Part shown: one piece after another, positions 1,160 to 61,703 of the stretch | Layout: every line of letters starts with the position of its first letter | Position numbering within the stretch: the stretch's first letter is position 1 | Assembly (NCBI GenBank): GCA_905178155.1 | Contig: CAJINV010000005.1 | Location: 5,287,038 to 5,351,037 of the forward strand | DNA: 64,000 nt | Direction: 5' to 3' | Source of the DNA: Amoebophrya sp. A120 | Taxonomy: Eukaryota > Protista > Dinoflagellata | Position numbers and translations under genes: made by a program | Notes under the pieces: model-generated | What the model saw: the letters and a program-made list of their open reading frames with translations, nothing else | The model's database searches: none | Told to the model about the DNA's origin: nothing

Positions 1160-2151
1160 ATGGCAGATACACCGGCAGCAGATGGGGCCACGGCCTCCAC
1201 GCAGCAGCAGCAACAGGAGAACACCAGCCGGGGGTTGCTGCAAGCGGATTCTAGCGGTGGCGCGCCGCAAACGGAGGGCGTGGATCCACGAGGGTTCCTG
1301 ATGAAGTGCTGTTTTCCCGTCTGCACCATCTGGGCGTGGCAGGGTTGCGATGACTGCTTTCCCATCCTCTGCACCTGCGTCCTCGACTGTTTTTTTCTCG
1401 GGTGCCTGTTCCCGCTGTTTTGCTGGAAGCCCGGCCCGCAGAAGATTTGGAAGGCCGACCCGGAACAAGAGCGCAAGGTCTGTTTATCCTGACGAGTAAA
1501 AACGTCCCCACACCAGAGTCAAGATGGGAAATCTGCTAGACAAATTAGCCAGCTTTGGTCGTTTCGCATGACAACTCTGTCCTCGTAGTGTGATCCTGTT
1601 GAGGTAGTTCAGAAGCATCACAGATCTAGCATATCACGCCGATTATAGCATCACAAATTTGAAAACGCCGCTCGAAAATGCTTCTCATGGTGCTCCGCAT
1701 GAGAAGCTTTTGTGGCATGCAGATTTGCATGACAACTCTGGGCCTGGGGTGGGAACGTTTTTACACAGGATACTGTTTCTGGGCCTGTCACCCGCTGAGT
1801 TGGCCCTGCAAGCTTTTGTGCTGCTTCGTCTCCGTCTACGCCTGGCAGGGCTTTGACGTGTGGTACGACTTGTTTTTTGCTTTGGACCTCGAGTTATGCA
1901 TTGCAAAAGCATCGTACTAGTAGAAGTCGCATTACAAATTCGGCCAGCATGACAAATGGAATTTGTCATGCTGTTTTGCCTTGAAAAAGAGTAATGCATA
2001 AATGCAATTACTACGAGTACGATAGTTTTGCACAGGATACGAGTGCTTCTACACGCTTTGTTGCTGGGTCCCGCGGAAGCAGCAGAAAATATGGGGCGCA
2101 GGGTCGACCGTGGTGGGCGCGCCCATTATGGGCAACTACGGGACGGTTTGA
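1160..2151 (+). CDS. Cysteine-rich protein with two internal CCF-x5-WQG-x-D repeats; 3 exons
   Basis: Removing 1485-1772 and 1895-2039, each with one 5-nt repeat, gives an open frame MADTPAA...KCCFPVCTIWAWQGCDDC...KVCFWACHPLSWPCKLLCCFVSVYAWQGFDVW...LECFYTLCCWVP...NYGTV*. Confidence 0.8.
1485..1772. mobile_element. Introner family B (TIR TATCCTG..AAAAACGTCCCCAC)
   Basis: TIRs at both ends, flanked by CTGTT/CTGTT; removal restores the frame. Confidence 0.9.
1895..2039. mobile_element. Introner family A (TIR TATnnnnTGCAAAAGTATCGTACTCGTA, about 145-175 bp; the most abundant family)
   Basis: Flanked by CGAGT/CGAGT. Many siblings, e.g. 4987-5134, 14101-14249, 17322-17469, 37579-37727, 53093-53241. 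Confidence 0.9.
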
Positions 2152-2806
2152 AGTCCAACAGGAGGGTGAAGTTTTCATCTTGTAAACCTCATCTTTTACT
2201 AGAGAAACAGCAAGTGCAGCATGCATTTTTCCTGTATATTAGTACAAGCCTTGAAGATTATAAATATCTGTACGCCAGGTGCTGGCGCGCATGATGAATC
2301 GGAGCCGGAGGTACGTCTAAATGCGTAGCGTTCGTTTCAAATGTATTTTTTTACAGCGGCATACTTTGCCTATTGCTATTCATTGTTGAGAGTTTATTTT
2401 ACTGCACGTTTATCATAAATTTTATTTTGTTTACATTTTGCATTTTTTGCATATAGATATACTTACATTATTTTTTGGACGTACAACAAGCCTTTGGGCA
2501 AATTTTAATTTTTATTTTACACACGCAGAAGTCGAACACGTCAGTGTTGTAGTGCTAAGAAACAAGAACTGACGCCTGGTGAGTCATAGGCTTTCTCCTT
2601 GAACTTGATAAGACTCGCTTACATTTTTAATATCTTCGTTTTCATATAATATCACTGCGACTGCCCCCCTCCAGCTCCACAGCGAAAGAAGAAGAAAACT
2701 CGAACTACCCAGACGAGCAAAATGAAACAAGACTGTGAGCAAAACCAATCCCCAAGATACTTCTAGGAAGGTTTTTTCATACTTTGACCATAATATGACT
2801 TAGTAT

Positions 2807-4789
2807 TGCGCCGCACCTAGTAGAGTTCTTGCTCGCATCATGCGGTACTAGGGGCGGAACCACTTTGATGGAGGAGGTTGTTCACAAAGACTAAGACATG
2901 AAAAGGTGGGACCGAGAAGATTGGTAGACTACATCGGTTTTAGATACCTTACCAGTTTGCGTTTATTCCAAGAACACCAGAATGTTGAGCGACTTTATGC
3001 TAGTACGAGGAAGAGGGACACAACCTACCACAAAGAAAGCACTCGAGCGACGAAGTTGCCCACTGATGATCTTCGGTGAGTTTGGTGTTGCTTGTAATTC
3101 CTAGTAATGCTATTCGGGCGAACCCGAGCTCGAGCCTTGACAGTGACACCGTACAAGCTGATTGCGCATTCTGTCGACAATTTTGTCATCCAGGAAACAA
3201 GCTGCTAGAAGAAGGCCTCCCTATTAGAGTAGTTGGAGATCGGGAAGAGCAAGGCTATGGGCAAAGAGCAATATTTTCAAAGATCGGGAAGAGCAATATT
3301 TTCAAACTTCCCTTTGGGATTTTAGTTTTCAATATACATAGAGAAGCTTCCTCTCTTCCCACTAGACGTGAGGCAGTTCTTGGTTTGGTGAGAACGTAAG
3401 ATTTATACCTACCCTCGACTGTTCATCTGGTAGCCAAAATTTTAGAAAGGCAACCTCACTACAACTAGGACTAGTGTTATTGATTCTTTAGGCGTTTACG
3501 TCGATATGTTCTTGTCTGTACAATATTCGTGTTGACGGAACAAAAGTAAAAATAGCATTTTGATTGCAATATTTTCTGCCTCAACACTAATGAGACAGTG
3601 ACAGACGCACGAGCAAGGTTTGTGTCGTCTGTTGTGTAGCTTGCATTGTTTTTTTATACATTTTTTTCCAAGTAGGACCATCTACATTTGGTCAGACACC
3701 GGCGCTATTTGGTCTACATCGTGGAACTATGCCTTACTCCTAAGTCTACACCTACCCGATCTTAAGTATTTACTTGTGCGTAATTTGCATCAGAAGTTCT
3801 TGAAGTTGTCCATTTCATTCTAATCCCTTTCAGGCTCCATTCATTCCTCAACATGGCCTGCGTCCTCCCTCTCTTTACATGGCCTGCGTTTACTACTGCG
3901 CCGCACCTAGTAGAGTTCTTGCTCGCAAGCGGTAGGAGCGAAGCCACTTTGATGGAGGAGCTTGTTCGCAAAGATATGAAACGGTGGGACCGAGACCACA
4001 ATTGCTAGACTACATCGGTTTCAGATACCTACTAGTCCAAGAACAGCAGAACGAGCGACTTTATAATGCTACGAGGAAATAAACGAGGGACACAACCACA
4101 AACGAAGCACTCGAGCGACAAAGTTGCCCACAACTGATGATCGGTGAGTTTAGTGTTGCAGTTGCTTGTAATTCCTAATAATGGATGCTATTAGGGCGAA
4201 CTCGAGCCTTGACAGTGACAGCGTAGTACAAGCTGATTGTGCATTCTGTCGACAATTTTGTCATGCAGGAAACAAGGTGCTAGAAAAGCAAAAGAAGAAG
4301 GTCTCCCTATTAGAGTAGTTGGAGATCGGAAACTACAAAACTATACATAGAGAAGATTCCTCTCTTCACACTAGACGTGAGGCAGTTCTTGGTTTGGTGA
4401 AAACGTAAGATTTATACCTACCCTCGATTCTCTGTAGCCAAAATTTTAGAAAGGCAACCCCACTAGCATTAAGTATTGAAATTGATTTTTTAGGCGTTTA
4501 CGTCGATGTCTGTTCTTGTCTGTACAGTATTCGTGTTGGCGGAGCATCAAAATAGCATCTTGGTTCTGCCTCAAAGGTAATGAGACAGACGCACGAGCAA
4601 GGTTAGCGTCGTCTGTTGTGTAGCTTCCATTGTTTTTTTTTCATTTTTTTCCAAGTAGGACCATCTACATTTGGTCAGACATCGGCGCTTTTTGGTCTAC
4701 AACCTAGAAGTTCTTGAAGGTGTCCACTTCTATCCTTTTTGGCTCTGACATTCATTCCTCATCAACATGGCCTGCGTCCTCCCTCTCTT
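2807..4789 (+). repeat. Diverged tandem duplication of about 1 kb (2807-3875 vs 3897-4789) covering the upstream region and first codons of the DoxX-like gene
   Basis: Both copies start TGCGCCGCACCTAGTAGAGTTCTTGCTCGCA and end ATGGCCTGCGTCCTCCCTCTCTT; long colinear matches with indels in between. Confidence 0.9.
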
Positions 4790-6621
4790 CCTGATCGGGG
4801 AAGAGGACGGCGTTTTGCCCAAGATGCAGATCCCGAAGGAAGACAGCCGTGCGTTGGGCGCCATCCTGGTCGTCCTGGCGCAAGCGATCGTCAATCTCTG
4901 GATTTTCTCGGTGTGGACCTGGCGGTTTAACAAGCAAACGCCCTTCCGCGCCCGGAATTCGCAGTCCCTGCTGCAAGAATTTCAATTATGCATTGCAAAA
5001 GTATCGTACTCGTATAAATACATTACAAATTTCCTCAGCATGAGAAATAAAATTTGTAATGCTGATGCACCTTAAGAAAAACGTTTGTAATGCATGATCG
5101 CAATACGAGTGCGATAGTACTTTTGCCCAGGATATCAATCCTACGGCTACGATTTGGAGGTCATGAAATGGACGGGCTTCGTGAAACTCTTCTGCGCGAT
5201 ATGACGGTGCACAAGAACTACTCCCCCTCCGCCTCATTTGTATAATTACGTAAACAGCAATACTGATGCAAACACCCGCACATCATGTGGAGCCTGCGCA
5301 TGACAAGTTCATCTTCTTCTGCCTCGTGTAGAAGTACTACTGGGCTACTTCCGGAATCTGTCATGCAAACAGTGCCTTGCATATTGGTGTTTTATTGCAG
5401 GACAAATGAGGCAAAGGGGGGGCTGTGCGCTTTCATACGCGACGCTCCTCCCCATCGCGATCATGAACCCGGAGTACCCCTTATGCAATGTAAATTTCCT
5501 GTACATGTACAAAATGCATGACAAATTTCGCTAACTTGCAGTGTCCAACTTGTCATGCTAGACTAGGACTGAAGGCAACTTTTGTCATGCAGAGACTGCA
5601 TTTGTACGTGTACGGGAAATTTACTGTGGATACCCCTGGCTCCTGATTTTCTCGTCCGGGGTCCTGTTTCTCCTGATGGTGATCGCGATCGTGTCGCACG
5701 TGCGTGTGAAAGATCCCTGGGTCAAAAACGTACCGGCGTTGGTCATGGCCGTGCTGTCCCTGGCCAGCCTGTTGGGTTTAAAGGAAAACTGCGTCTACAT
5801 GCCGGACTACGCGGAAGATTTCTCATCTTCGTCCGCAGTTTCGTCTACAACTTCATCTGCAGGGACAGCAACAACGACTTTCAATTTGGCTAGTACTTCG
5901 AGCGGGACCACGATATTAACATCTTCAGCCCCAACATTGATGAAGCATATGCAACTGACGCAAGGACGAGGAGGACCAAGTGCTGGTGCTGCAACTACTA
6001 GCCAGGCGTTGGCCGCTTCTTTACCTGCTCCAGGGGGTGTATTATTCACAACGAGCGACGTGGTGGTACCTCCAGCTCCAGGTGACAATGTAGCAGTTGT
6101 ACAGCAACATGTTTTTCAACACAACGAGGACTTTCTGAACCGGCTGGTGTCCCAGGACGGCAGACTGGTAATCGGCTTAACACTGTTGCTACTGGACTTC
6201 GCGATGCTGTTCTATGCGAAGTTTGTGGGACGGAAGTACGCACAGGTACCGAAGTATGGAAGCGTCAGGATTGAAATTGTCAAAGTTGAGATAACTTGTA
6301 ATGCATAAAATCGATACCAGTTGGAAGCCCAATTTTCAAGCGGTGCATGACAAATTTTCCGAGCACCGGAATCCAATTTGTCATGCTGTTTGGGCACAGA
6401 CGCCTGCTTTTGTCATGCTACTTTAGCAGCTCTAATATTTCAAACACTAAGCAGGCTGCCAGTCGGCCTCACTTGCCATTCCAGCAAGACAGGCATTTTA
6501 TGCCTTGCATTTTATGCATGGCAAATCATTTCAACTTTGCCGATTTCAAACCTGACGCTTCCATACGAACTCGCCGGACAACCCGTTCTTTGCCCTCGTG
6601 GAAAGTAACAGCAGAGTCTGA
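4767..6621 (+). CDS. DoxX-like membrane protein with low-complexity C-terminal extension; 5 exons
   Basis: Spliced protein: IVNLWIFSVWTWRFNKQTPFRARNSQSLLQEFQSYGYDLEVMKWTGFVKLFCA...MVIAIVSHVRVKDPWVKNVPALVMAVLSL. This resembles bacterial DoxX_2 proteins (WLxRFNKxTPYR...EFxxYG...HxKxKDP). Introners at 4987-5134, 5200-5437, 5482-5632 and 6255-6565. Stop position is less certain. Confidence 0.7.
5200..5437. mobile_element. Introner family E (TATGACaGTGCACAA..CCCCCTC)
   Basis: Flanked by CGCGA/CGCGA. Siblings at 28290-28507 and 48589-48818. Confidence 0.85.
5482..5632. mobile_element. Introner family G (TATGCAATGTAAATTTCCTGTACA)
   Basis: Flanked by CCCCT/CCCCT. Sibling in the opposite orientation at 37273-37438. 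Confidence 0.85.
6255..6565. mobile_element. Introner family H (TATGGAAGCGTCAGGATTGAAAT)
   Basis: Flanked by CGAAG/CGAAC. Sibling in the opposite orientation at 59377-59682. Confidence 0.85.
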
Positions 6622-7381
6622 GGCGATTTTATGGACGACGGCGAAGCAGGCAGGCGAGAGGTCGTGGACGAAGACGAGCAAAAAGGGGTCCAGTTTATTT
6701 TTATGACGAGGACGCAAATGTTGCTCTTGACGAAGCTTGAGTTACCATACCGAGGCGAAAAGTTTTCCTTTCGCACTTCATTTTGGAAAGTGAATCAGTG
6801 TGGTTGTGTAGGAGAAGGGACCTGTATAGTACTTACTAACGCGAGCAAATCATGCAGGTCAACAACAACATGGTCAACAATGAAAAAAATAGAAATTTTT
6901 GTGTGCAGATGAAGAAGAAGAATACAGTTTCACAGGAAATAAATAAGGCCCGAGAGAACTGAATCAGATCAGTGCAGTGACTTCAATTCTCCGCCGGAAA
7001 AGTGTATTTCTATTTTCCGGATTGAAACAAGAATAATAAAGAATAAGAACATATAGAAGATGAAGTCAGTTAGAGTATAATGTCTGTCACGAGTGCAATC
7101 TTTATTATTATTTCGGCATCCAGAGGGCCATGCCTAAGTGTAGTACGGGTTTGTTCTGTAGTTGCGCTGCCATTTTTTCAGGATGAAGAGCGAAGGAGCT
7201 TTCATCTATCTGCAAGCCCGAGGAGAGACGACTTTGGCCAACTTTGATTTCTGAGCAGAGCATCTACACGACAAATGTTGGGTGTCTTCGTTCTCTTTGT
7301 GATTTGTTCAACACAGCAAGCAGCTCGTTAAGTAGCTGCTGCCATCTTTTTTCGGAGGTATATATTTCATCGAAAATTATC

Positions 7382-9934
7382 ATGTCGGCGTCCTCGTCAT
7401 CTCGAAGTTTCTTGCCAGCCGCGTCGAAACTGCTGCAGGCGACGCAATCTTCTTGCTACAACAACCCTAGAATTTTTCTCGCTACGGCGACGCGTACGAG
7501 TGCCAGGACAACAAGTGTGAAGAACTGCAGGAGGCAAGATCAACAGGGCCGCGGTTCTTGTGGGAGCAGCACATCCAGCAGCTCCTCAAGTGCCTCTACT
7601 TCTACTCTCGTAAAGGTAAAAAACTGCCCAGCGGGTGAACTACACGTAGGTCAACATCAAACATCAGGTCGCACACAACTACTTCGACCGCAGGGGTGGC
7701 CGCGGCCCACCGATTCTGATCCGCAGTCGACGCCACTTTTTGATGTTTTTCCCGGAACAGGTAGGTCTAGGTGGCCAGAAGAACCGGTTGCAATGGCTTA
7801 CGGACATCAAAATCTCTTCCGACCCGCGACCACGCACCAGAGGACCGGCTCTCTCGTAGTTTTCAGCCACGGTCGCGGGGACAGCACCAGGAGCAGTTCA
7901 CTTGTTCATCATCCCAGATTTTTCCATCATCGTCCTGCTCCCATCAGTGCTGGGAGAAGCAGAGCACAACAACTTTCACTGTCACAGATGCGAGCTTTTT
8001 CATCATCTTCTTCCCCTGCGAAGGTGAAAGTGATGTGGATTTACGAAAAGGACGGCCAGAAGATAGGGCCCTGTGAGGTGAAACCGCACCAGACCATGTT
8101 GGACTGCGCACACGACCACGACATCGAAATAGAAGGTATACGATAGGAACTGAAAGGGTCATGCTAAAAAAGCTTGTCATGCGAAACGAGGACATGATAC
8201 TTATCGATATCCACACAAAAAAAAATGCTGAGTGTTCTGATGCGCACCATGATCTTCATGCGTGGTCTCACATCAATATCATACATCATTCATCATTTGA
8301 TCAGGTGCCTGTGGAGGCAATGCTGCCTGTTCGACGTGTCACGTGTACCTAAGCGAAACGGATTACAACAAATTTCCGGAGCCTGATATGATCCGCTCAC
8401 ACGCGACAATCTCAAGCGTTACAATAGAATAGTGAAAATCTGTGATGCAAGAGGTGCGTGATATCTAGCCAACTCTCATAGAATTGCGCATGACAAGTTC
8501 GTCCGGAGGCCGCAACCGCACTACAACCTGGCGAGATCTGTGTTGCAGCAAGTGGAATGCTTTCCGAGTCTGTCATGCTCGTCACGCAGTACAAAGTCCA
8601 GACTCTATTGTAACAGTTGAGATTGTAACGTCTGAGCAGGTCACACCTGACGAAGACGAGCTGGACATGCTGGACCTGGCCGCGTATGAATTGCAAAAGC
8701 ATCGCACTCGTATATGTAATCATGCATTACAAATCCTGTTCTTGAGGCAAATTAGCATTACAGATTGGGGAGGGGCAAATTAGCATTACAGATTTCCCGG
8801 CGGGATATAAGTTGGGGAGCACTGATAGATAAAAAGGCAGCATGCACAGGGGAGAGTGGCCCCTGTTGCAATGCTGACCTATAAAGAAAGACAAAGATCA
8901 CGCAGATCCGTTTTTTACAAGCAAACGACCCACGCATTGCGGGGCGGGATCCGTATCGTGAAAGATCCAGTAGCTTTTCTAGTCTATGTTGTGCCCCTTA
9001 CTAGTTTGCCGTCGAGTAGAAGTAGAGCTGATTTTATTGCAATTGCCGCCTTTGCGATATTGTTTAGCGGACCCCGCCAAAATACCCTCATGCGTTTCCC
9101 GAGTAAATCAGTTGCAACTAGAAGCATCCCCGTCCTGCTTCGGCACACCCCATCTACCTAGTCGCTCCTGGGTAGATGTGGGGATTTTTTGTCTGGGCTT
9201 CTTTCTGCTTAATTAATCTGACAGGGGCTGCGTCTTTTTTTTCTGCCTTGCCAGCAGAGTATGTATGAAAGGGGGGGATTGACGGAAGTGGCGCGAGACC
9301 TTGGTGCTGGAGCAGAGGACAAGAGTGGAAATGGTACAAACAAAAAACAAGCACTAATATACCCGCGCCATCTGCTTAACTGTGTGAATTATTGTGTCGG
9401 CCCGGTACTGTTTAGTCGCAGGTCGGTGTCCGTGAGATCAGAATTCACATGTTAAGTAACGCACACCGGCTCCTAGCTTAAAAAAAGTGATGAATTTATA
9501 TGCGAATGGGGCCCAATCAAAAAAAAAAAAAATTAGCATTACAGATTTTATTTCTCATGCTGAGGAAATTTGTAATGCATTTACTACGAGTGCGATACTT
9601 TTACTTTTGCACTGGATACCGCGGGCCTGAAAGAGGGCACCAGCCGCCTGTGCTGCCAACTCCGCGCCAGGCACATACAAGACCAAAGCAGCGGTGGAAG
9701 CGGCGGGGCTCCTGCTGCACCGGAGACGTATCCAGTGCAAAAGTATCGTACTCGTAGTGATTGCAATTATGCATTACAAATCTCCATGCCAAGGTGAAAC
9801 AGCACCACAAATTCCATTTGTCATGCTGAAGTAATTTGTAATGCAATTACTACTTCTAGTACGATGCTTTTGCAATGCATAACGCGCTAGTTCTAACGAT
9901 ACCGAAGGAGACAAACAACTTTTTCGACATGTAG
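7382..9934 (+). CDS. Mitochondrial 2Fe-2S ferredoxin (adrenodoxin type) with long Ser-rich N-terminal presequence
   Basis: Spliced protein: DIEIEGACGGNAACSTCHVYLSETDYNKFPEPDEDELDMLDLAAGLKEGTSRLCCQL...LVLTIPKETNNFFDM*, which has the C-x5-C-x2-C...C motif. GT-AG intron at 8136-8304; introners at 8387-8645, 8685-9618 and 9729-9881. Confidence 0.9.
8796..9532 (+). mobile_element. Poly(A)-tailed SINE/retroposon-like insert nested in a family A introner
   Basis: About 720 bp with no convincing ORF, ending in an A14 run; flanked by AAATTAGCATTACAGATTT repeats. Confidence 0.75.
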
Positions 9935-12900
9935 GACAACTTCTGCAAGTAGAACGGGGTCTACTTTTCGTGTCACCTCTATGAGGACCAAAAGAACATC
10001 GAGTAACTCTAAGGCGCCGGGTCGTGTCCTCGCTCCGACGGCGATGATTTTCAGTTCTTCATCCCAAAACAGATGAAACTCAGCCGCTTTTTTGAAGTAG
10101 AATATCCGCATCACCCGTGAAGAGAAACTTTTTGAAGCAAATTCAAAGCGAGAATCAATAATAAACTCAAGCTTGAACTACAAGGGTAAACAAGCATCAT
10201 CTTCGTATGGAAATGAGCTGCGCCTACAAGAGCTGCCACTGGTTCATCTTCTTGGAGGGGGGGCTGATTGTGTGGCGAGTCCCTTGGTTGTAAGCGGCAT
10301 CGTTGTTCCTCTGGCATGATCCACCTATTTCCCGACAAAAAGATCTGCATCTTGTTCTTCCACGTTGTGCTGCAATGGAAGCTCTATTTCGGATCCCCAA
10401 TTATTATTTGTTCGTTGTTGTTCCCTATCGATTGCAGTGGCAGTGCATCATTTGCATGGATGATCACCGACGAGACTAGAGGCTACAAACGCCAGCTCCT
10501 GCTTCTAAAAGAAGAGCAGTTTTTGCTTTCTCGCGGACCGTGTACTATTCTATTTATTCACCACGCGAAGTAGATCGTCGATCTCGATTCATTTCGAAAA
10601 AGGGCGAGAAGGATCTCGATAGAACAGTTTCGTGTCGGCCTGCCCTGGGTGATCGAATTGTATTTGTAGTCTGACTGCAGATCACGCACATCCTTTTGCT
10701 AGTCGTATGTGCTAAGAACAGGCTGTAGGAGCAACTGCAACTGCACCTACGCGAGCATTAACATCGATCGTGAGACGAGTTCTACCATCTGGGTGTGGTC
10801 TTTGGCATAGAGCAAAAGAAAGATAAAACCGTACATGTAATTCTTGCGTAAAACTAGAACTTTATCGACCACTACGTACAACATAAAGCTAAAGAGCATA
10901 CACCGGGCATCAACACGGTTTGGGTCTCGCACCGGCGAAGTGCTATCACTGGAATACGATGAAATTTTTACGTAGACAATTTTCTAGTACTGTACCTAGG
11001 GACGTTGCAAACTTCCATCAGCCCTGTTTTACTAGAAAGTGCTTTAATGATCGGGCGAGAAAGGATCAGTCAAACGACACTGCAGCAGGAGATCTTCGTG
11101 CGTATATTAGCCTCCCCTCCGCGACAAGAACTGTGTAGCGGGTAAAAATACAACTTCTTGGCCGCGTTTTGCAACGTCATCTATCTCAATGTTTCTCTCA
11201 GTCTTCTCTCTAGTACAGAATCTATCGCACTAACTAGGAAGACGAAGAAGACGTTCGTGGTTTTTTACTATTTATCGTACTTATACTTAACTTTTTAGCC
11301 GATAGAGTCGAAGAAGTTTACCTTTATTTTCCAATGATTTCGTAGTATTTTTGTCGATAAATTAGTCCTATTTGTTCGTTCTGTCTCTAGCCAAAGAATC
11401 TGCTAGCAATAAAGGTCGTGATCAACGCCCACCCTTTCCCGCCACGGTCCCGGAAATTTTACCAATAGAAAGGAAGTTATTGAATATTGAAATAAGAAAC
11501 AATTATAATACTAGACGAGCGAAAGTTCAATAATCTATTTTTAGAGGTGGAAACGAAGTAGATGTAGCATCCTTTGTTCTTCTTCTTGTCCGATCAGCCA
11601 CTCAAGTCGAATTGTGAAAATTTGGCTTCGGTCGTGTTGGTGAGTTTTCCCTCCGTCACTAGTATCTTTGACCACTTATGTAGAATCCGCAAAGCCAAAG
11701 CGATTTAATCTCATCTAGGTCTTTCACACCACGTTTTGCTTCCACCGGGCTTCCGTTTTAATACTCCGCTTTTTGTCACTGTATAAACATACGCACGCGC
11801 AAGCACCCGCAGATATTTACTGTACAACTTCTCGTGATCTATTGGCCATGTTAGTTTTTTTTTCCTGAATAAAGCTAAGAGTAAGAAGTTGAAGTTTAAG
11901 TTTCTGACGCTTTTTCAACGGCCTATTGAAGAGCTGCAGCAAACTGCTTCACAAAAACCGGCCGCCTGGTACTGTTGGCTACTTTCGTCGGTCGTCCTCT
12001 AGTTGTACCACAGTTTTAAGATAATATAGCTTTCCCGACTTATTTCACCAGGTAGTCTTACACTTACTCTTACTCAGAAATATTCCATCGCAGCAACAAA
12101 AACTAAAACTTCTCTTCCAACTTCCATTCGGGGACTCAACTTGCTTTCGTCTCGTCGGATGGTTTCGAAATAACTTCCGGCGACAAGAAGCAACGAACTG
12201 AGCCGCCTGAATGCCGCATGATCGATAAATCCTTAAAATGAGTCTACTTCTCCACATTGATTTCTAGTAGCCCTCTTTCGAAACCAGGTTGTCTGGAGGT
12301 CGCAATGCCAGTGCTAGGATGTTGCTCGTAGATGTATAGGATTAGTAATCCTGCGTCAGCGTCGGGATCGGGTCGTGCAACTAGAATTTCGTCGTACTAT
12401 CGGAGATCGAACAGGAGACTCTTGCTGCAGTACTTCGATTCGTCATGTACTGCAGTACTGCTCGTAGAGCAGGAGCAATCTATCGTGTCGCAAAAAATTG
12501 AAGAACCTCGTGGTCCCAGCAAATAACATGAATACTAAAACACACCCTTGATGACGGCGAGGCATCAAATATTTTTAAGGCGTTTTTTTTTTGAAGAGTA
12601 AGAAAAGATAAACGTGCATAAAAATATTCGGCAAGGTGGGAGCTACTGAAGCAACAAGAAGGGACAACACTTGTTTCTAGTTGCCAGCCGGGGTTTCCTT
12701 CTTGAGCATTCATCGATCAAGAATTGGTCACTCTGCAGCGGCGCGGCGGTGATCATTTTTGTCGCCAAGTGCAAGAGAAGTGCTGTCCGAGGAATAACAG
12801 AAAAAACCACGAGCGCGCGCTGCTCATCATCTTCTGCGGACGACAAAGATCATTATACGAAGAGCAACGTCTACGTCGGCTTACCGGCAGGCATCAATAC

Positions 12901-38319: not shown

Positions 38320-39134
38320 CGACAAGGCAGAATGCATCCTGGAGATGAAGATGTACTCGAAACCAATCGATGAAAAATCAAAATTTAAATTGTTGATTGC
38401 ACAACTTTTGCCAATATTACTACTGAGAATAAAAATCCGTTTCTAGTACTATTGGCACGGTCGTTTCGGTGCTTTTTGGGCAAGAATATTTTCCTCTTGT
38501 TGTTGAGAATAGACAAAATTTACTTCATCAAACCAACGTTAGTTTCTCTCCCGGCGCTTGCGCTCGCGGAAAGGGAAAGTTCTGACAAAAAAGAATAAAC
38601 ATGAGGAGCTCGCGAAACAAGTGAAAGTGTTGCGCAGCTTTCTCAGCGGCGGGTTGAGTGACGTGGTCGTGGCTCACGTGTTCTTCCGGAGTGTGAGGAT
38701 AGACATGTGTCCGCGATGTTGAGTTGTTTCCTTTGGTAGTGTGTGAGTGCTCAGCAGGTTGTTCTTCAAATGTTCTTGTTCACTCGACGTCGTCCGACAG
38801 TCTTCCAGTTCCGTGTTCTTTGTCGTCCGAATGGGTTTGGTTTCCATTTCAGTACATTTGCATCTAATTCATAACTATTTCATGCATCTTTCGTGAGTCG
38901 AGTTGAGAAGCGAAGCGTTTTTTTCATCGCGCACCCGGAGCTGTTCTGTGGTACGTTCCGCGCCCGCTGCTTCCTCATTTTAAGTACACCAGTCGGAACT
39001 AAAACTCTTAGAAGCATAGAGAGGGTAGACCATTCAGTTTTGGATCTAAAAGCAAGACAACTGCAGTGCGCAAAAGTGACGTAGCGACGTATAGCATGAT
39101 CATGTAAGAGCAGCACAGCACGCATCAAAAAAAA

Positions 39135-46708: not shown

Positions 46709-46726
46709 ATACTGGAGTGGAATGGT

Positions 46727-51081: not shown

Positions 51082-54000
51082 ATGTACCTTGCTTCGGGGG
51101 AAAACGTAGACGCCAACTCGGATACTTCCGATTCGTCCGATGTGGAGGACAGCGAGGCAATCGCGGCGAGCCGGCGACTCCAGTCCGCGCCCCCGATGCA
51201 GTTCATGTACGAGAGAAGGTCGGAGTTTGAGTCCCCCCAAAACTTCCTATCAAATGAAAATATGTCTGGGTCTGGGAGATTCTGAAACTTACTTCTCATG
51301 CACGTTTCGCATGGGCCACGATGTCTGTGATGCATGCCGTAGCTTCACAGCTTTTTCGAGGGGTTCTTGATGCCTATTGCGCATGACAAATGCCCTAACC
51401 GCGTAGCAAAAATTGCATTCCCTTTGCTATTCATGCAATACAATTTTTTTTGGAATCCAAATGCAGCATCACAAGTTGCATTCTACTTCCAGGCCCAGAC
51501 ATTTTTGCATTTGATACTTTCGAACACCCGACGAAACGAAAAACAGCAGTTCTGGCGGGACGGCGTCTTCCCCTGGAACGAGCAAGATATGAATTGCAAA
51601 AGTATCGTATTCGTATTGCAATCATGCATTACAAATCCTTTTGTTAGGGTAAATCTGCATTACAAATGTTATTTCTCATGCTGAGGAAATTTGTAATGCA
51701 TTTATACGAGTGCGATACTTTTGCAGACGATACAAGAAGAAGAGCAACAATAATTCGCCGTCGAAAAAGAACAATCTGAGTAAAACGCCGCAAAGCGGCG
51801 GACCGACCGTAGGAGGCAATGGAAGTCGAGGTATAGCAGGTGTTTGGATTTCCAACCAGGAGTGAAGTGTTATGTTACGTCTATAAAAATCTTGATGGTG
51901 TATGTTCTTGTTCTAATATCACGATGCGACAAGTGCGAATGGTCTGGTGCAACCTACTGCAGGAAATGGAAATACAACATCGCATATAATTGAGCCGTCC
52001 TTTACTTCAAACTGCATATACAGGTGGAAATAACGGCCGGAAGCTGTCTACCCAGCACGAATCAGACGATGAAGATGAATCCGAACAGGAAGAGCTTGTC
52101 CGTCACACTGCACTATCAAATGCAAAAGTGTCTCGGTCTGGAAGAATGTAACTTGTGATGCTGCGTTTGGATGTCTAACAAATTTGTGTTGCGTGAGCAG
52201 CAAAAGGATTCTAATTTTTGCTACGCGGAGGGCATTCGTCATGCGGAATAGGCATCAAGTTTAAGAATCCCTCAAAAAACCTGTGATGCTATGGCATGCA
52301 TCACAGACATCACGGCTCATGCAAACCGTGCACGACAAGCACAAATCTCAGAATCTTCCAGACCCAGACACTTTTGCATTTCATATGCACCAATGACCTA
52401 TGCAAACCCCCAAAGGACAACCCCAAAGTCGTTTTCAGGTCATCTAGAAGGTGGCATCAATGCGGCGAGACAAAAAGCAAAATCGGAATATCGGCACCCA
52501 GGAGCTCCTGCAGGTGCCACCGCGGCCCAGGGAGGAGGTTCTTCTACACCGTCTTCGAAGAAAAACAAACAAAACGCGCAGAGTACGTCGTACCAGTTGA
52601 GCTCCCCGCCAAGACAAGACCGTGGGATCGTGTCTATGCCGTCCGAAGATCATGCTGGGGTGTATTCTCTCGACGGTCATGGAACAGCCGCTATCAAGAG
52701 AAAAAGTGTTAACGTTAACGGTTTTCACAGATAGCAGTCATGCGTCGCAAATGTAGCTCAATATGCATGCTATGCATGACAAATTTAGGCACGTTTTGTG
52801 ATGCATTTCTGCATAACGAATTTCGATAACGTTAACACTTTTTCCTGTGATAGCCGCGACCATGTCGATGCCACCCGGGATGATGATGAAGATGTCGAGA
52901 GCAGGTGGAGTTGCACAAGACAAGTCAACACCGAACAAGTCAACAGCTATAACTCCTACGTCCGGGAAAAAGAAGGTGAATCAAAAGCAAAGCACTAGCC
53001 CGGTCGTGACCAAAGCAGGCGCTGGAAGTGCGACAACTTCAAGTCCCTCTAAGATGGGCAACAAGAAGAACAACAAACAGCTGCAAGGAACTTATCCTGT
53101 GCAAAAGTATCGTACTCGGATAAATGCATTACAAATTTTCTCAGCATGAGAAATAAAATTTGTAATGCTGATTTGCCTTGACAAAGAAATTTGTAATGCA
53201 AGACCTGCATTTATACGAGTACGATACTTTTGCACAGCATAGAACTACACTGACGTCGATGCAGCCCACCAGCTACAACAGTGCAACAGTAACGTACTAG
53301 TATAAATTGCATTACAAATTGGCTCAGCATTACAAATTCAATTTGTAATGCTGATTTACCTTGAAAAAGAGTTTTGTCATGCATAAATGCAATTAGTACG
53401 AGTGCGATACTTTTGCACAGGATACCAGCTACAACAGTGCATCAACCGGGGCGGGCGAGAGGAAGGAATCGGACGAGAGCGTCGGTTATCCTGTGCAAAA
53501 GTATCGTACTCGTACTAATCGCATTCATGCATTACAAATGTCTTTCTGAACTCAAATCCGCATTACAAATTTTATTTCTCATGCTGAGGCAATTTGTCAT
53601 GCGATTTATACTAGTACGATGCTTTTGCATTTCATATCGGTTCGTTTCTCCGCCAAGAAAGCCGCCAGGATTCGGAGATCATCATTCCCGGGCGGAAAAT
53701 GTATTCCGAATTTTTCCCCGGCAGGGTAAAACCTGTGACGGAAGGGCACCCAAAACACCAGCAGCAGCTGACGAGGCAGCAGCGGGCGGAGCGACGACCA
53801 AGTAGGAAAGTCCCGGGGGAACCGGGAAAATTGAGTCCGGGAGGGAAGATAAAGATTAAACCAGGGGCGCAACATATCCCACGAAAAAACTGGTTCACCG
53901 TCGTGATGATCTTGCAAGATCTGCATCACAAGTTTCTTACACATAACACAGAAAATTTGCCATGCGCGCTTCCCAAGTGAAAACACGCGGAAAAATCCAG

Positions 54001-57000
54001 TGTCTTGCAGGTGTAGCAAGACAAATCGTTCTGTGCTCCATTCTCTGCATCGCAAGTTCACACGTGAAACAGTTTTTTCGTGCGATACAACAAGTCTCCT
54101 CTACAACGTCCAGCGACGTATCAAATGTAAAAATGTCTGGGTCTGGAAGAATGCAACTTGTGATGCTGAATTTGGATTCCAAAAAAATCTGTATTGCATA
54201 AGCAGCAAAGGGAGTGTAATTTTTGCTACGCGGAGAGGGCATTTGTCATGCGGAATAGGCATCGCGAGGCCCTCAAAAAATCTGCGATGCTAGGGCATGC
54301 ATCACAGACATCAGGAGTCATGCAAAACGTGCATGACAAACCTGGCAATCTTCCAGACCCAGACATTTTTACATTTGATACGACGACACGGCGAACCAAC
54401 GAGCCACAGTGGCGACGATGGGAGGTGGTCACGACCCGTATCCTGTGCAAAAGTATCGTACTCGTAGCAATCGCAGTCATGCATTGCAAATCTCCATCCC
54501 AAGGTAAAACAGCATGACAAATTCCATTTGTCATGCCGAGCTAATTTGTATTGCAATCACTACTAGTACGATACTTTTGCAGTTCATGACCCGAACAGGA
54601 GAACAACGATGGGCGGCGCGGTGAACAAATTCCGACAGCAACTAGAGGAGCAGCTGGGTAAAGTGAACAATGACGGGGAAAGCACAACCAAGTCGAAAAA
54701 ATCGACCGACAGCTTGTCCAGGACGGTTTCCGGTGCGAAGAAAAAATCGTCCGCTTCCCGGTCCACGCGGAACAACAGCCGTATGAAAGCCTCAGAATGG
54801 AAATCCTCAAAGTGGAAATGATTTATGATGCATGAAATGCGACGCAAAAAAGACTGTATTGCAGAGCACGCAATGGAGGCCGACTATTGTCCTGCTAGGG
54901 GTGAAGAATTGGAGTGCTGCTTTGCACGACAGAAGGGCACCCCCTTGCCTTAACCTGCATGACAAACATGCTGTAAGTGCCCGGAAAATTTGTCATGCGC
55001 CGACTACAAATGCCGCTTCAACTGGAGTCGTTTATTTGCATTACAAAGTATTTCCACTATTGAGGATTTCCAACCTGAGGCTGTCATAAGCCGGTTTTCC
55101 GATAACCCGCCACCCCCACCGGCTTTCCAGCCGCCGGTAGACATGGATCCGCCACTGTTCCGGATGAACTCGATAAACCCGACGGGAGTGGTGATTGCAC
55201 CGGGGGAATTGGATTATCCAGGTATAGTTGGAAACTTTTTAACGATGACAATGTAAAATTAAATACTTTTCGGGATGATCAAATTATGTCTTACCGGAAC
55301 AAGATTTTTTCCCCTCCTCGTTCGTGTTTGTGCTGTCCTCTGCTTCTGCATGTACACAAACCTTCCTCATTACACAAAAACGCATGCAAATACTTATTTA
55401 TCACCCTCTTTACGACAACAGCCACCTCGATTCCGACGGTCCTAGTGCCCATCGACATCGCGAACCAGCCAAAGGTGCTGATGCCCATCGATAATAACGG
55501 GACCTACACCGAAGCGGTCCCCGTGCTGATGTCCTCTGATTTCGCCACCCCCACGACCCTATGCAGTGCAAAAGTATCGTATTCGTACAAATGCAAGTCC
55601 TGCATTACAAATTTTTTTCTTAAGGTAAATCAGCATTACAGATTTTATTTCTCATGCTGGGGAAATTTGTAATGCAATTTGTACTACTACGATACTTTTG
55701 CAGTTCATAGACCCCCATCAATGCAGCGGCGTCCCCGTTCATCCCCCACACGACTATCAAATGCAAAAATGTCTGGGTCTGGGAGATTCCGAGATTTGTC
55801 ATGCAGTTGTTCCAAGCTCCCCCACGTCTGAAGTGCAGGGCCTAGCATCAGAGGTTCTGCAGCTCCTTGGTGATGTGTATTCTGCATGAGAAATGCCCGC
55901 TCAGCATCGCCAGAAGTGGGCACCTTTCGCACGTTATGCATCACAGGTCTTTGTGGGATCCAAAACACGCATCACAAGTTCGAATCCTTCGAGACCCAGA
56001 CATATTTGCACTTGATAACGACTGGCACCCCGCAATTGCTGCCGTTCGCCACGCCAACCAGTAGCGGTCCGCACGCGATCAACACTGGTGGAGGGACAAG
56101 TACTACTACTCCCGCGTTTTCGCTCGTGTCAGGAGGTGGAGGAATGAATGCCGCAGCAGCGGAGTTCACGCCGCAGAGTGGTGCGAACAATAATGCGATC
56201 CTGGGCAACGTGAATGCGAGTATGTTGAGCGGGGGTAACATGGACCTGCAAATGGACGACACATCAACCGCGAACATTACCGACGGCTCGGGCTGGGTTG
56301 CAAACAATACTAGTTTCAACTCTCAGAGTAAAACTGGCTCGGCGTACAACAACAATAAAGGTGGAAAAATGATGAACAGAAGCAGTGGCGGAAAGGGGAA
56401 TTACAACAATCAGAACGCCATGGGAGACGGCGGCCAACCAGGCAGCTGGATCAACAATAACAGCAACGACAACTACGGGAATAACTATTGGGGCGGTAAT
56501 GCAGCTAATCAGGACCAGCAGAGGGGCAGCGGAAACAACCAATACACGGCCTACAAGGGCAGTGGCAATTACGAGTACGACCCCAATGTTGACCCAGGGA
56601 GTTATAGTGCGTCTTACATGGAAACAAACAACCCGCAAGGTGGTCCGTTGAACACCAAGGGGACATCAACGACAAACGGGTACAACAATAGCTACGCTGC
56701 TGGTGGTATCCCCCAGAAAAAGACCGACAGGTCATATTTGTAATGCAAAAATAAATAGATAAAAAAATCTGTATTGCATGCCCTAAACAGGATGTTATGG
56801 CCTCGCCCATGACAGATTTTCCTGTGTATTTATTTTTGCATTACAAATATGACCTGTCGGTCTTTTTCTGTGGGATAGGTGGTGGTGCAACCTCTTCCTC
56901 ACAGCAGAACGCTGGAGCAGGTGGTGGCAAGAAGGGCTACAACTATTCCGGGCAGAAGCAGCCCCGGAACAAATACGGGCATTTGGTCGTGCAAAACCAA

Positions 57001-60000
57001 GACCAGCGGCAAAACCAAAACCTCCAGCGGGATACAACGTCGAGTGCAGACCTCAATGTATCCCACGAAAAAACTGTTTCACTGTGATGATTTTGCAAGA
57101 ATCGCATCACAAGTTGTTTGTGACACATGAGGACACAGAAAATGTGTCAGGCGCGTTTTTCCCATAGGGAAAAACACGGTTGGAACTCCAATGCTCTATG
57201 CAGGTGTAGCAAGACAAATCGCTCTGCGCTCCATTTTCTGCATCACAAGTTCACAGTGAAAGAGTTTTTTCTTGCGATACAATGCCGCGCAGATGTATTC
57301 GGTTTTTTCCCCGGGCACCGGCGGTTTATCCTACGTAAAAACGTCCCCACACCATAGTCAAGATGGGAAATCTGCAACATAAATCTCCAAGTTTTGGAAG
57401 TTCTGCATGACAAGTTTCCATCTGCAGTGTAGTGCTGGTTAGCCAGGAAAGCCGCATGAGAAAGCCATTTACTCATTCTGTTTACAGCATTACAAATTCC
57501 AAAACACGACTGGAAACGCCTCTCAAGGAGATGCGCGCTACAAATGTTCCTGTCATTGCACATTTGCATGACAACTCTGGGGTCCGCCTGCGCCTTCGGT
57601 GTCCGCCTGACCTACCCCCCCTGCGTGTCAAGCCATCTGCGGCCTGGGGCAGAGGGGGGGGGGCAAAGTGTGCTGCAATTCCTTTAGCATGACAACTCTG
57701 GGGTGGGGTCGTTTTTACACAGGATACGGCTTTCACCGGAGTTACTCGGCTTTCAACAAAAACCAGAAGGACTACGTCCAGGGAGCGGATGGGCAATACT
57801 ATCCGCAAAACAACTACATGGGAGGTGGTGGGGATGATGCCGGATCTTCATGGGGAGCCGGGTACCAGCATCCCCAGGGGAATTACAACGCGAACTGGTA
57901 TGGAGGGACCACGAACAGCAGCTACAACCAATACGGGAATCCAAATCAGCCGGGGCTGCACAACAAGGGTTACGGGAAACACCAGCAACAAGGTAAAAAC
58001 TACCCTGCGAGCAACCAGCTCGCAGTACCACCGTCGGCGGCGACCAAGCCACGCGCTTCCTCCTCGAGTTCAGCGACGACAGCGCAGCTGACGAACAAGC
58101 AGCTCTCCCACGGGACCGCGGACACACCCACAAGGCGGAGAAAACACCACGCACCGAAGCTGTCAAAAGCGAAAAAGCTGGAGCGGCTGGCTACGCATTG
58201 CAAAGCAAGTATCGTACTAGTAGTAATCGCATTACAAATTTGCCCGGCATGAGAAATGAAATCTGCCATGCTGTTTTGCCCTGGGACGTAGATTTGTAAT
58301 GCATGCTTGCGATAATTACTACCTACGAGTGCGATACTTTTGCACAGGATACTAGCGCACGTGGCGTGGCACGCAGAGGCGACGAGTATGGGGTGGCTAG
58401 ATGAGGACACCATGATATGAATTGCAAATGTGTCTGGGTCTCCTGGAAGCTGGTAACTTGTCATGGTAAATCTGAAGCATACAAAAATCTGTGTTGCATG
58501 ACTGCCAAAAGCAGCTCTTCACTTTCGACCAAGGTGGGAGGGAGTTTGTTCTCATGTAGGATAGGCATGATAGGGATCTCGTCACAGAATGTCTGTCATG
58601 CTAGGTCCCGCATCCCAGACCTCATGGGTCATGGAAAACCTGCATGACAAGTTTACGCTCTTCCAGACGACCCAGACATAATTTTTGCATTTGATACATG
58701 AAATTCGTGAAGCACGACGCGTTTCACGGCAGGTTATCGGCGCTAAGCGAAAATATGAACTGCAAAAGTATCGTACTCGTATAAATGCAAGTCTTGCATC
58801 ACAAATCTTGTTCCCAAGGCAAATCAGCATTACAAATTTCATTTCTCATGCTGAGGAAACTTGTGATGCATTTATACGAGTACGATACTTTTGCACAGCA
58901 TAGAAAATCACGTGCGGCAACATGGGGTATATATGCAAGAAAAAAACTGTGTAAGTGTAACTCTGTAATGCAGAACATGCAACAGAGCTACACCTGTCAT
59001 GCCAGACAGCCATGAAGTCCTCTGCTCAAGTGTGTTTTCCCTTACAAGCCACGCATGACAGGTTTTCTCTGCCATGTAGAGCAAATTTGTGATGCTGTTT
59101 CTCAAAGAAAGTTACACTTACACACTTTTTTTCCTGGATAGTATAGGATTTTGCGACTACAACCTAACAAGGATTGTCATTCGGTTTTTTCGTTCTGTTC
59201 CTCGCCAAGGGATGAAGCGGAACGAAATACTTAAATAATACAAAGTGTAGAAGTCGTGTTTTATTTGAGCTCCTCAGTACTAGAACTTGTTCGTGATGAA
59301 GAAAACGTCTGCAATTTGAATTTTAGTCACAGTGACTGCATTAAGACAAAAGCAAGACTACTAGTACAGCACAAATTATGGATGTGTCAGGATCGAAATC
59401 GACAAAATCGAAAAACTTGTGATGCGTAAAATGTAGAGCACTGAAGGCCTGTCTTGGGGCGCAGGCATATGAGGCCGATTGTAAGCCTGTTTAGGGGTAT
59501 GCAATGTGCTGCCAGAGTAGCATGGCCGGAGCAGTCTTCTTTGTCCAAACAGCATGACAGACTGCATTTGGGTGCTCCCGAAATTTGTCATGCGCCACTT
59601 GAAGACTGAGGCTCCAACTGACATCGATTTTGTGCATCACAAATTTTTCGATTTTGTCAATTTCGATTCTGACGCTCCCATACAAATTCAAAAAATTGAA
59701 ATTGTATCAGGTCCACCGCTACTGCGTATGCTGTGCAAAAGTATCGTACTCGTATAAATGCAGGTCTTGCATTACAAATTTCTTTGTCAAGGCAAATCCG
59801 CATTACAAATTTTATTTCTCATGCTGAAAAAATTTGTAATGCATTTATACGAGTACGATACTTTTGCAGTTCATACTGCGTCTCATTTCACCAAGTGCAC
59901 CACAAAGCTTTGAGTAATGCGGACGGAATATGGATTGCAAAAATGTCTGGGTCTGGAAGATGTCATGCTGTTTTTGCATGACGCAGAAGGTCTGGAATGG

Positions 60001-61703
60001 AAGCTCTAGCATCACAGATTTCGAGAAGGTTCTGCAATGCCTAATCCGCATGACAAATCCCCCACTTTGGTGACAAGAAGTGGGCATCTTTTGCTGCCTA
60101 TGCATGACAGATTTGTCTGTGTTGTGAACTGCGCATCACAAGTTCACATCCTTCCAGACCCAGACATTTTTACATTTGATACGGAATGGGCTTCGTGTTT
60201 TCCTCCTTGCTGCCCTGTACGAAGAATATCCAGAAAATCAAGTCGATTTTTCTGAACAAGAAGGGCCAGGTATAGTAAAAATAAATCGATCTGCTGAGCA
60301 GCGGTCGTGTATCCTCTGATTTTGCCAAACGATATGAACCGTAAATGCTGTGAGTCGTGCATGAGAAACACATTTTGAAGTGCATGGAAAAATGCATGAC
60401 AAATCATAATCAAATACTATGAACACCAGATCATGATCCGGCGAGAGAAGGAGCTCAACAAATGCATCATCCCGCTGGAAACGGACGACCCGAACGCACA
60501 CACCACCGCAGAAGGCCACGAAAAATCGAAGCACAGCGCAGCGATCGTCGACCACGAAACCAAATCCTCCTCCTCTGCGGACGGAGAAGATCATAGGAAA
60601 AACGCGCCCAGCACCTCGAGCGACACCGGAAGAGCCATCCCCTGGAAGGAAAACACGAGGCTGCACATGCAGATTGACCTGGACAACTACAAAGTGAGCT
60701 TTTGGCTCGAGGAAAAATACGAAGAAGATACGGACGAATACCACGCGACGGATGTGCCGGTGCCGGAGGATGCGGTATTATTTGATGCAATACAAATGTA
60801 TTTGATGCAATACATTGTATTGCATCAAATACAAACAGACAAATGGGATAACCATGTATTTGATGCAATACAAATTTGTTCGACGGACAAGTTGAAATTT
60901 ATACATACACATCAGATCACCGTCGATTACCGTTCCTACTTCGACCTAGAACAAGACGACCTGTCCCAGGGTTTTCTCACCATTGTGCTCAAATCCGCGG
61001 TATGCATTGCAAAAGCCTCGTACTAGTCTAAATTGCATCACAAATTTTGGCAAGAAGGTTAGTGGAATTTGTAATGCTGTTTTCCCTTATGAAAAACATT
61101 TGTCATGCATATTTGCAATTAGTACGAGTGCGATACTTTTGCAGTTCATACGCGGGCGCTGGTGCGAGATTTGTGTCGTACGACAACCTCACCCCCAAGC
61201 CGGAGTTGCCCGCCGACCCCCAGCACGACATCGAGGAGCTGACGACCCCGACGGTGTCCTCGAACTTGGGCAACAAAACGCCATCCGGGGCAGCGGGTGC
61301 AGAAAACAAGAAGAAGAAAACAAGACGGAACAAGAAGAAAAACGCGGCTGCGAATTCCGCCGGAAACTCACCAACGAACGGGGCGGTGAACAAGGATGAT
61401 GAGGACGAAAACACGAAACCGACGGATCACGCAACGTTTCTCGGCGAGGTCAGCGGGGAGGTGATTGAACAGTTGGAGGACAGATTATTGACGCAGTCGA
61501 AATCAACAAGGAAGAAGAAAACGACTTCTGCTGGTGGTGGTGGTCCAAAAACCGCTGGTGCTCCTGCAGCTGCCGGCTCAACCACGTCGTCCGTGTCAGT
61601 AAGCAAGTCTTCGCCAAGCAAAAAGCCCAGTGAGGCAGCTACCTTGTTGGACCAATCTCCCGGGAGTGGCAGCACTGCGGATTCTAGGACGGCGGACGCT
61701 TGA
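51082..61703 (+). CDS. Large low-complexity (N/G/Q/S/P-rich) hypothetical protein with a globular C-terminal domain; about 24 introners
   Basis: Exon fragments join in frame where checked. C-terminal domain FHGRLSALSENHVRQHGVHRYCVSF..ADGMGFVFSSLLPCTKNIQKIKSIFLNKKGQI resembles a motif I recall from dinoflagellate hypothetical proteins. Could be more than one gene. Confidence 0.6.
56707..56877. mobile_element. Single-copy introner with a ~50-bp TIR
   Basis: TATCCCCCAGAAAAAGACCGACAGGTCATATTTGTAATGCAAAAATAAATA and its near-exact complement; flanked by GGTGG/GGTGG. Confidence 0.85.
57584..57686. mobile_element. 103-bp GC-rich insert nested in family B introner 57327-57726
   Basis: Flanked by an 18-bp duplication GCATGACAACTCTGGGGT; absent from other family B copies. 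Confidence 0.8.

Follow-up and report, generated by a model that had tools for sequence, protein, structure and literature searches.

The stretch studied here, a window of 64,000 nucleotides from the dinoflagellate Amoebophrya sp. A120, is crowded with short non-coding transposons that interrupt its genes and are removed from the transcripts as introns. These elements insert with a 5-bp target duplication, they leave the RNA together with exactly 5 nt and in one register at the informative junctions, they share an internal motif, and the constraint on their terminal bases depends on the polarity of the intron. Taking the whole together, we consider it probable that they are transposon introns moved by what is likely one DDE system and excised in a fixed register, likely by a modified U2-type spliceosome. 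Three exons of the window are 100% identical to annotated proteins named as those of A120, and the elements are therefore the introner elements described by Farhat et al. 2021 (PMC7789003), who counted 1,954 families and 29,850 copies. The lead given by the original prediction, toward introners flanked by inverted and direct repeats in this host, was thus right.

One hundred elements were curated between 1485 and 61150, for a total of 23,511 bp or 37% of the window. A strict scan for a 5-mer, TAT...ATA and a second copy of the 5-mer, in which 9 or more of the 14 terminal bases had to be complementary, returned 64 pairs, compared to a mean of 1.0 and a maximum of 4 in 30 shuffled sequences; the scan requiring TAT(C/G) gave 64 pairs and none in 3 shuffles. 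The original prediction had announced about 100 elements with such ends, which agrees with the curated count. The final list was built from strict and relaxed scans, protein mapping and inspection, with 8 elements added or re-paired by hand (those at 43921, 40334 and 38018 were retained or re-paired in this way). Candidates of the relaxed list at 12481, 13725, 43936, 49023, 53050, 58161, 62530, 11460 and 49074 were removed as mispaired or doubtful. The two copies of the duplication are identical at 5/5 bases in 71 of the 100 elements, at 4/5 in 20, at 3/5 in 3 and at 2 or fewer in 6. Elements start with TATC (58), TATG (39) or TAC (3), and 95 end with (C/G)ATA, the other 5 being variants. The exact direct repeat measures 5 nt in 69 of 91 elements, 4 nt in 1 and 3 nt in 1, and the 5-bp duplication is seen in every family of the window. 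To extend the sample, metagenome contigs were scanned with the same pattern, giving 135 outside loci that total 654 kb and contain copies of the window families at 72-97% identity. Neither in the window nor in these loci do the target 5-mers show a consensus or a base preference.

The elements occupy positions 1485-1772, 1895-2039, 4987-5134, 5200-5437, 5482-5632, 6255-6565, 8387-8645, 8685-9618, 9729-9881, 13614-13967, 14101-14249, 14484-14678, 15077-15347, 15634-15848, 15984-16401, 16875-17158, 17322-17469, 17551-17786, 18192-18421, 18748-18969, 19079-19277, 19638-19906, 20244-20556, 20590-20876, 20923-21177, 21273-21542, 24749-24920, 25129-25385, 25479-25768, 25823-26088, 26146-26462, 26506-26657, 26727-26905, 26975-27126, 27563-27848, 27909-28222, 28290-28507, 28583-28800, 29268-29962, 30004-30282, 30560-30825, 30891-31047, 31104-31318, 31424-31710, 31750-31899, 32082-32343, 32385-32710, 32818-32983, 34891-34999, 35352-35606, 35664-35942, 37072-37223, 37273-37438, 37579-37727, 38018-38219, 39241-39399, 39528-39681, 39757-40018, 40334-40604, 40828-40976, 41159-41447, 41497-41758, 41808-42061, 42537-42687, 42756-42900, 43596-43862, 43921-44047, 44608-44875, 44918-45075, 45720-45869, 45930-46190, 46334-46595, 47268-47476, 47856-48117, 48167-48418, 48589-48818, 51248-51516, 51588-51732, 52114-52385, 52692-52852, 53093-53241, 53274-53424, 53487-53636, 53875-54087, 54119-54380, 54439-54588, 54782-55088, 55560-55709, 55755-56017, 56707-56877, 57059-57279, 57327-57726, 58192-58351, 58416-58696, 58754-58902, 58932-59140, 59377-59682, 59727-59875, 59929-60181 and 61001-61150.

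The insertion itself can be read from a gene segment that is present twice in the window, on the plus strand and 95.2% identical (1164/1223 columns). Copy 1 (40184..42962) carries 7 elements missing from copy 2 (46818..49022), which in turn carries 4 elements missing from copy 1. At 9 of the 11 empty sites the alignment leaves a gap of 5 nt; at the other 2 the gap is of 2 nt and adjoins a codon indel. The elements are insertions that produce a 5-bp target duplication, in either orientation. They have the features of miniature inverted-repeat transposable elements (MITEs), that is terminal inverted repeats (TIRs), a duplication of fixed length, empty homologous sites and no enzyme of their own.

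Removal from RNA was followed on transcript contigs from two runs, labelled RNA by guess yet containing spliced forms; placement of reads and contigs covered one 20-kb stretch, and junctions were taken from the offsets of contig pieces. The contigs skip the elements plus exactly 5 nt each in blocks of 8, 8 and 4 elements, and in a block of 6 the 254 nt removed in addition correspond to the GT-AG intron 28861-29114, so that removal spans 26 elements. One contig retains an element, at a depth of 4 compared to 149 for the spliced form. Net removal of the element and 5 nt is also seen at the protein level: deleting them recovers calmodulin-like, ferredoxin-like and cactin proteins, and the calmodulin-like frame is lost if 4 or 6 extra nucleotides are deleted in place of 5. 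The cactin identity comes from a Pfam match, whereas the calmodulin-like and 2Fe-2S ferredoxin-like products are presumably such by their motifs. The genes concerned, all on the plus strand, are a kinase gene (P0001, 13352..21718) with 17 elements and 6 GT-AG introns, the cactin gene (P0004, 24411..33212) with 22 elements, the GT-AG intron cited above and its spliced form in two transcript-type runs, the calmodulin-like gene (37047..38319) with 4 elements and one GT-AG intron (37796-37926), and the 3′ part of the ferredoxin-like gene (7979..9934) with 3 elements (8387, 8685, 9729) and one GT-AG intron (8136-8304). Elements account for 55 of the 64 interruptions counted over five genes, and GT-AG introns for the other 9. 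Element-plus-5 deletion, its restoring effect on these three proteins and the statement that almost every coding interruption is such an element had all been put forward from the letters alone; contigs, translations and counts agree with them.

To place the cut within the duplication, we took advantage of the elements in which its two copies mismatch, where the number k of bases retained from the 5′ copy becomes readable. When the proteins P0001, P0003 and P0004 were mapped on the window, 13 junctions proved informative, and the junction at 20590 was read by eye. All 14 are compatible with k=4; k=3 is ruled out at 18192, 20590 and 44918, and k=5 at 13614, 19079, 24749 and 30004. With the contigs, k=5 is ruled out at two of these junctions, 24749 and 30004, and k=0-1 at the junction of 20244; at the old intron of the calmodulin-like gene the contig piece restarts at 38224, as predicted by k=4 only. 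The intron is very probably N-TAT(C/G)...(C/G)ATA-NNNN, in one fixed register. At this register 24 of the 100 window introns start with GT and 11 end with AG, but 1 has both (7/380 in the outside loci), in line with the original prediction that GT-AG ends are unnecessary.

The introns that carry this information are all on the plus strand. In five old ones the duplication has decayed or the interior has lost its features: 38017..38223 (CGAAA versus TTTCG), 18191..18425 (register 4-5), 18747..18973 (register 3-5), 19078..19281 (register 2-4, with a CAG end at register 4) and 13613..13971, which keeps TATG and CATA without internal motif or predicted end pairing (register 3-4). Four others have mismatched duplications: 20589..20880 (GGAGC/GGACC; an E in the protein and in the A25 orthologue gives a register of at least 4), 24748..24924 (CTGTT/CTGTA; register 5 ruled out by contig and protein), 30003..30286 (AGATT/AGATG; register 5 ruled out by contigs and protein) and 44917..45079 (CTCCC/CTCGC; the P0003 protein gives register 4-6). 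The 5-nt repeat is dispensable for splicing, since the cut offset is unchanged in old introns that have lost it. A splice point floating inside the duplication, with the duplication itself guiding the joining, could be imagined from the 71 of 100 junctions that sequence cannot place and from the Fig. 3 legend of PMC7789003, which terms the splice sites variable. It is very improbable in view of the 14 protein and 4 contig junctions that share one register, and of the introns with 0-2 of 5 matching duplication bases, which are removed with unchanged net length. At the fixed register, 19078-19281 ends with CAG and 18191-18425 starts with GT, a possible drift to canonical ends; no such trend, as gain of G+1 or AG, appeared in the wider count over window and loci. 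Three window cases suggested a G>C bias at position -1 of the intron; the loci did not uphold it (1/19).

What is conserved at the ends was then counted on oriented introns. Codon use oriented 380 of the 509 elements of the outside loci, the 129 uncalled ones being dropped. Among 473 oriented elements, window included, variants number 0 at +2, 5 at +3, 9 at +4, 2 at -7, 13 at -6 and 9 at -5. U at +2 never varies and A at -7 varies in 2 elements, whereas their mirror positions in the inverted repeat each vary in 9. This end asymmetry is significant by Fisher test (p=3e-4; 0.0014 in 453 strict cases; 0.015 in 364 loci-only elements). As one repeat position is frozen at one intron end and free at the other, a symmetric transposase is not the cause. 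Pairing alone fits poorly as the constraint: pair-breaking changes are present at +4 and -6, and the wobble-keeping A-7>G is absent. Moreover, old introns retain TAT(C/G) and (C/G)ATA after loss of the duplication, the motif and the predicted stem. Canonical host donors start with GTA in 9/9 cases and with GTAY in 8/9, so N-TAY matches them from +2. Of the usual features of U2-type introns, G+1 and the terminal AG are not conserved here and the conserved U+2 is present.

We favour, with moderate confidence and from these sequence constraints, removal by a spliceosome with the branch A at -7. A U2-type spliceosome with the G+1 requirement relaxed would read N-UAY as donor, and the branch A would set the 3′ cut by distance, without AG; the elements leave the RNA as N-UAU(C/G)...(C/G)AUA-NNNN, likely through such a modified machinery. 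Fixed branch-to-3′-end distances are described for Trichomonas, Giardia and Yarrowia in the part of PMC2483917 consulted, where the branch A lies close to the 3′ end (-8 or -6), as proposed here; in contrast, their introns retain GT, AG and a strict ACTAAC, none of which the A120 elements have. The non-canonical introns of Fritillaria borealis and the introners of Aureococcus, Micromonas and Polarella are, according to the literature consulted, likewise born from transposons and processed by a spliceosome that is either adapted or ordinary, but their splice dinucleotides are carried or co-opted from the duplication, whereas only U+2 is fixed here.

A second route would be a structure-guided, non-spliceosomal nuclease and ligase, with cuts 1 nt ahead of the terminal stem and 4 nt behind it, an outline proposed for the nonconventional introns of euglenids (PMC12501133, PMC11282704). 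Those introns, as far as these papers were covered, also lack GT-AG, have paired ends with fixed unequal motif offsets and probably derive from MITEs, and Euglena relies on paired motifs whose spacers have fixed lengths (PMC12501133). In A120 most copies form strong end-closing hairpins (z ~ -11), end pairing is predicted in 26 of 32 folded elements, all 20 interior clusters with at least 5 members include both orientations, G+1 and AG are not preferred, and U1 small nuclear RNA (snRNA) was undetected according to the text of PMC7789003. Such a nuclease is nonetheless unlikely. At +2 and -7 it is base identity and not pairing that is constrained, and the constrained bases agree with the host donor GTAY; old introns keep the cut offset even where no stem is predicted, and of the 6 folded elements without end pairing 5 are removed according to protein or contig evidence. 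The euglenid code, N3-CDG...CH′G-N5-6|R, is pairing-based and yields circular products in the accounts consulted; the window elements do not carry that signature, their register being N-TAT...ATA-N4, with offsets of 1 and 4 and a constraint on base identity.

At the DNA level, the elements share an internal motif, WGCATKACAAAT, with 336 sites in 88 of 91 window elements compared to 6 in shuffles. The density of similar sites is 15.7/kb inside elements and 1.15/kb outside, and such sites are common to 48 of the 55 clusters obtained from the interiors of the 473 elements of window and loci. Same-direction motif pairs lie 31-33 bp apart, that is three DNA turns, in 23 of 27 multi-member families (expected 3.4, maximum 9 in 2,000). 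The motif stands at set distances from the element ends and is similar, at one offset, to the terminal repeat. By transcript strand its sites number 980 and 1000, 60 elements have sites in a single direction only, and 5 of 7 old introns have lost it. Being strand-blind and lost in old introns, the motif behaves as expected for transposase sites, and it points to a duplex-DNA-binding protein for mobility, most simply a transposase. That it is instead bound by a host DNA or chromatin protein favouring retention or copying of the elements would suit the failure to find a transposase, the background of sites outside elements and the presence of the motif in some canonical introns, but we hold it to be distinctly unlikely given the set end distances, the likeness to the terminal repeat and the decay of the motif as copies age. 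In viral contigs the tandem motif gave 12 matches, taken as chance: they lie in AT-rich repeats, and the stretches printed show no element ends. The element end pattern gave none. Finally, two motif sites 32 bp apart lie in the GT-AG intron 14840-15014, and the motif is matched singly or in pairs in three further canonical introns; introners that have decayed may account for part of the canonical introns.

Clustering of the interiors of 91 window elements gave 15-18 clusters, in which two families take 57-59 elements and singletons 8-11. Family A (1895..61150, both orientations, about 150 bp) has 32 clustered members, e.g. 14101-14249, 26506-26657 and 53093-53241, and family B (15077..60181, both orientations, about 260 bp) has 25, e.g. 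25129-25385, 39757-40018 and 54119-54380. Family C (1485..57726, about 285 bp) has 7 members, at 1485, 27563, 30004, 31424, 35664, 41159 and 57327, frequently with the motif in a single direction. Family D (15634..59140, about 215 bp) also has 7, at 15634, 28583, 31104, 47268, 53875, 57059 and 58932, and family E (15984..32710, about 315 bp) has 5, at 15984, 20244, 26146, 27909 and 32385. Small families with their own terminal repeats (5200..59682) are 5200/28290/48589, 6255/54782/59377 and 17551/29268. The longest plain element, 29268..29962 (695 bp), has a copy of 815 bp in the outside locus L054, the two being 91% identical over 596 bp. The claim of at least 10 unrelated families thus holds for the number of clusters and for interiors that cannot be aligned, but not for unrelatedness, in view of the common motif.

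We are fairly confident that one mobilising system serves all families; a single DDE transposase system would bind the shared motif and move them all. Several unrelated transposon classes with differing duplication lengths, whose common ends converged on spliceability, would explain the unalignable interiors and the dataset of Gozashti et al. 2025 (PMC12130899), which in the part consulted lists non-LTR (long terminal repeat), LTR-like and TIR labels with automated duplications of 2-6 bp (41/58 A120 rows). This we regard as very unlikely, since all families here have the 5-bp duplication, and the strand-blind motif, which is not needed for splicing, recurs with its 31-33-bp spacing in 23 of 27 families. 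The single trans-acting machinery first proposed for every family is supported in its unity but has to be divided in two: a DNA-level machinery, seen in the common duplication length, ends and motif, and an RNA-level one, seen in the common register and polarity-specific bases.

Whether the enzyme is of integrase type is close to an even call, leaning slightly against. All 100 elements start with TA, unlike the TG-type termini of Ginger2. In the part of PMC10045372 consulted, IS3EU/GingerRoot elements share the TA..TA termini but have a 6-bp duplication, while the 4-5-bp duplication of Ginger2/TDD is compatible with 5 bp, all having integrase-type DDE enzymes; the elements are assigned to neither. 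Long members sharing ends with short families, at L054 4305-5119 (815 bp), L003 505-1608 (1104 bp) and L039 1561-2313 (753 bp), are the best leads to an autonomous element. The 12 open reading frames (ORFs) of three long elements gave no transposase domain against Pfam, the tested ORFs of L054 and L003 gave no domain (L039 being outside that scan), and Pfam on 109 of the 223 ORFs of at least 200 aa in window and loci gave no transposase or integrase. The 159-aa ORF of the 815-bp copy had no match in Atlas, none in PDB and none in viral contigs, and its two matches among 1.84 billion representatives were a copy of this ORF and a repeat protein. A likeness of this ORF to the Copia integrase C-terminus, presumed by eye, is not counted, and the integrase homology reported for family 38 was not reproduced on the 815-bp copy.

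Several points weigh against the reading as a whole. Most of the register evidence lies in annotated proteins, and the borders of these follow from the transcript alignments made by the annotators; the contig-based junctions are four only, from runs guessed to be RNA; and one kinase junction maps as a single 408-nt intron, off-register unless a 5-nt micro-exon is assumed. Orientation by codon use is inferred, and called 85 plus, 3 minus and 6 uncalled in a window check (n=94). The contrast at -7 alone, 9 versus 2, gives p=0.065, with two -7 variants in existence; no clear branch consensus was found around A-7; and T>C and A>G happen to be the most frequent mutations too, which weakens the match of TAC to GTAC. 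Motif hits occur in 4 of 7 canonical introns as well. No transposase or autonomous partner with the same ends was found in the 64-kb window, as the original prediction had stated, nor in the 654 kb of loci, and the text of PMC7789003 consulted reports none in A120 and rejects general mobilisation by a transposase.

The element class and most of the end grammar are already published (PMC7789003; PMC12130899, parts consulted). Farhat et al. give inverted repeats of TAT, 7 nt and AAA and direct repeats of 3-5 nt, with one 5-bp example; the window elements likewise have TAT, about 7 variable nt and AAA, direct repeats of 5 nt, and occur as repeated families without GT-AG borders that are removed from transcripts. 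In that text the element borders are non-canonical, the splice sites 'variable' and the border 'unknown', the repeats of variable length, and the spliceosome nearly complete; here, in contrast, there is a single 5-bp duplication and a single register, to which the polarity-specific bases and the common motif are added. The words 'subterminal' and 'lariat' are absent from the text of PMC7789003. In the dataset of PMC12130899, family 38 (808-810 bp, TIR, '5-bp TSD, TA/TA termini', TSD standing for target-site duplication, with a Copia/Gypsy-like ORF) resembles 29268-29962 in length and ends, and A120 family lengths (~150, 210, 260, 280, 305, 320 bp) match the window families; the remaining families are treated there as mechanistically diverse, and the parts covered contain no shared motif or register. 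Nothing further on register, motif or mechanism stood in the parts consulted of PMC12005148 and PMC12787238, and Roy et al. (bioRxiv 2020.10.14.339549) deal with other dinoflagellates. Literature searches gave no published register, shared motif or mechanism, subscription papers, theses and Figs 3, 4 and S19-S25 of Farhat et al. being outside their coverage. The splice code and the shared binding-site grammar of these known elements appear to be undescribed.

More than 60% of the A120 genome introns are removed without GT-AG, and the literature consulted gives neither the removal route nor the mover. With a single register, tens of thousands of annotated introns would have their borders corrected, and exact predictions can be made: a lariat branch site, two bases to mutate, and pairing partners in U2, U5 and U6. 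The shared motif offers bait with which to seek the missing transposase, and it speaks for one system behind the ~1,950 families. More tentatively, and with somewhat less than even expectation, one undescribed TA-ended, 5-bp-duplicating transposase would have spawned all families and a U1-less spliceosome would have been rewired to the transposon end, with U+2 as donor and A-7 as branch. If so, insertion in any target and orientation would give a perfect intron at once, and a spliceosome that does without G+1 and AG would show strikingly how a host can adapt to its transposon.

Some features of individual loci may be added. In the kinase gene, 15440-15852 can be read as a GT-AG intron and an element split by a putative 5-nt micro-exon, or as the single 408-nt intron, with the same protein. 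Element 8685-9618, in the ferredoxin-like gene, holds about 750 bp of unrelated non-coding DNA within family-A ends, which looks like cargo capture. Around the duplicated gene segment, the right half of a family-C element stands before (46727-46818) and the left half after (49023-49175), with 36 identical bases at 46727 and 49128; these halved flanks look like a circularly permuted or reversed-ends product, in which introner ends moved host exons. At 53269-53435 the first 11 bases of the element equal the following exon and give a 16-nt direct repeat, by chance or by conversion from spliced sequence. Three elements (59377-60181) lie in AT-richer sequence upstream of the 60400-61700 frame. Palindromic motif-like repeats within an open frame at 60779-60870 possibly stem from an exonised or decayed element. 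An intergenic tandem duplication of about 950 bp (2800-3875 and 3890-4789, 78-85% identity) has neither ORF nor element ends. All modelled genes of the window are on the plus strand, like the unidirectional clusters described for the genus.

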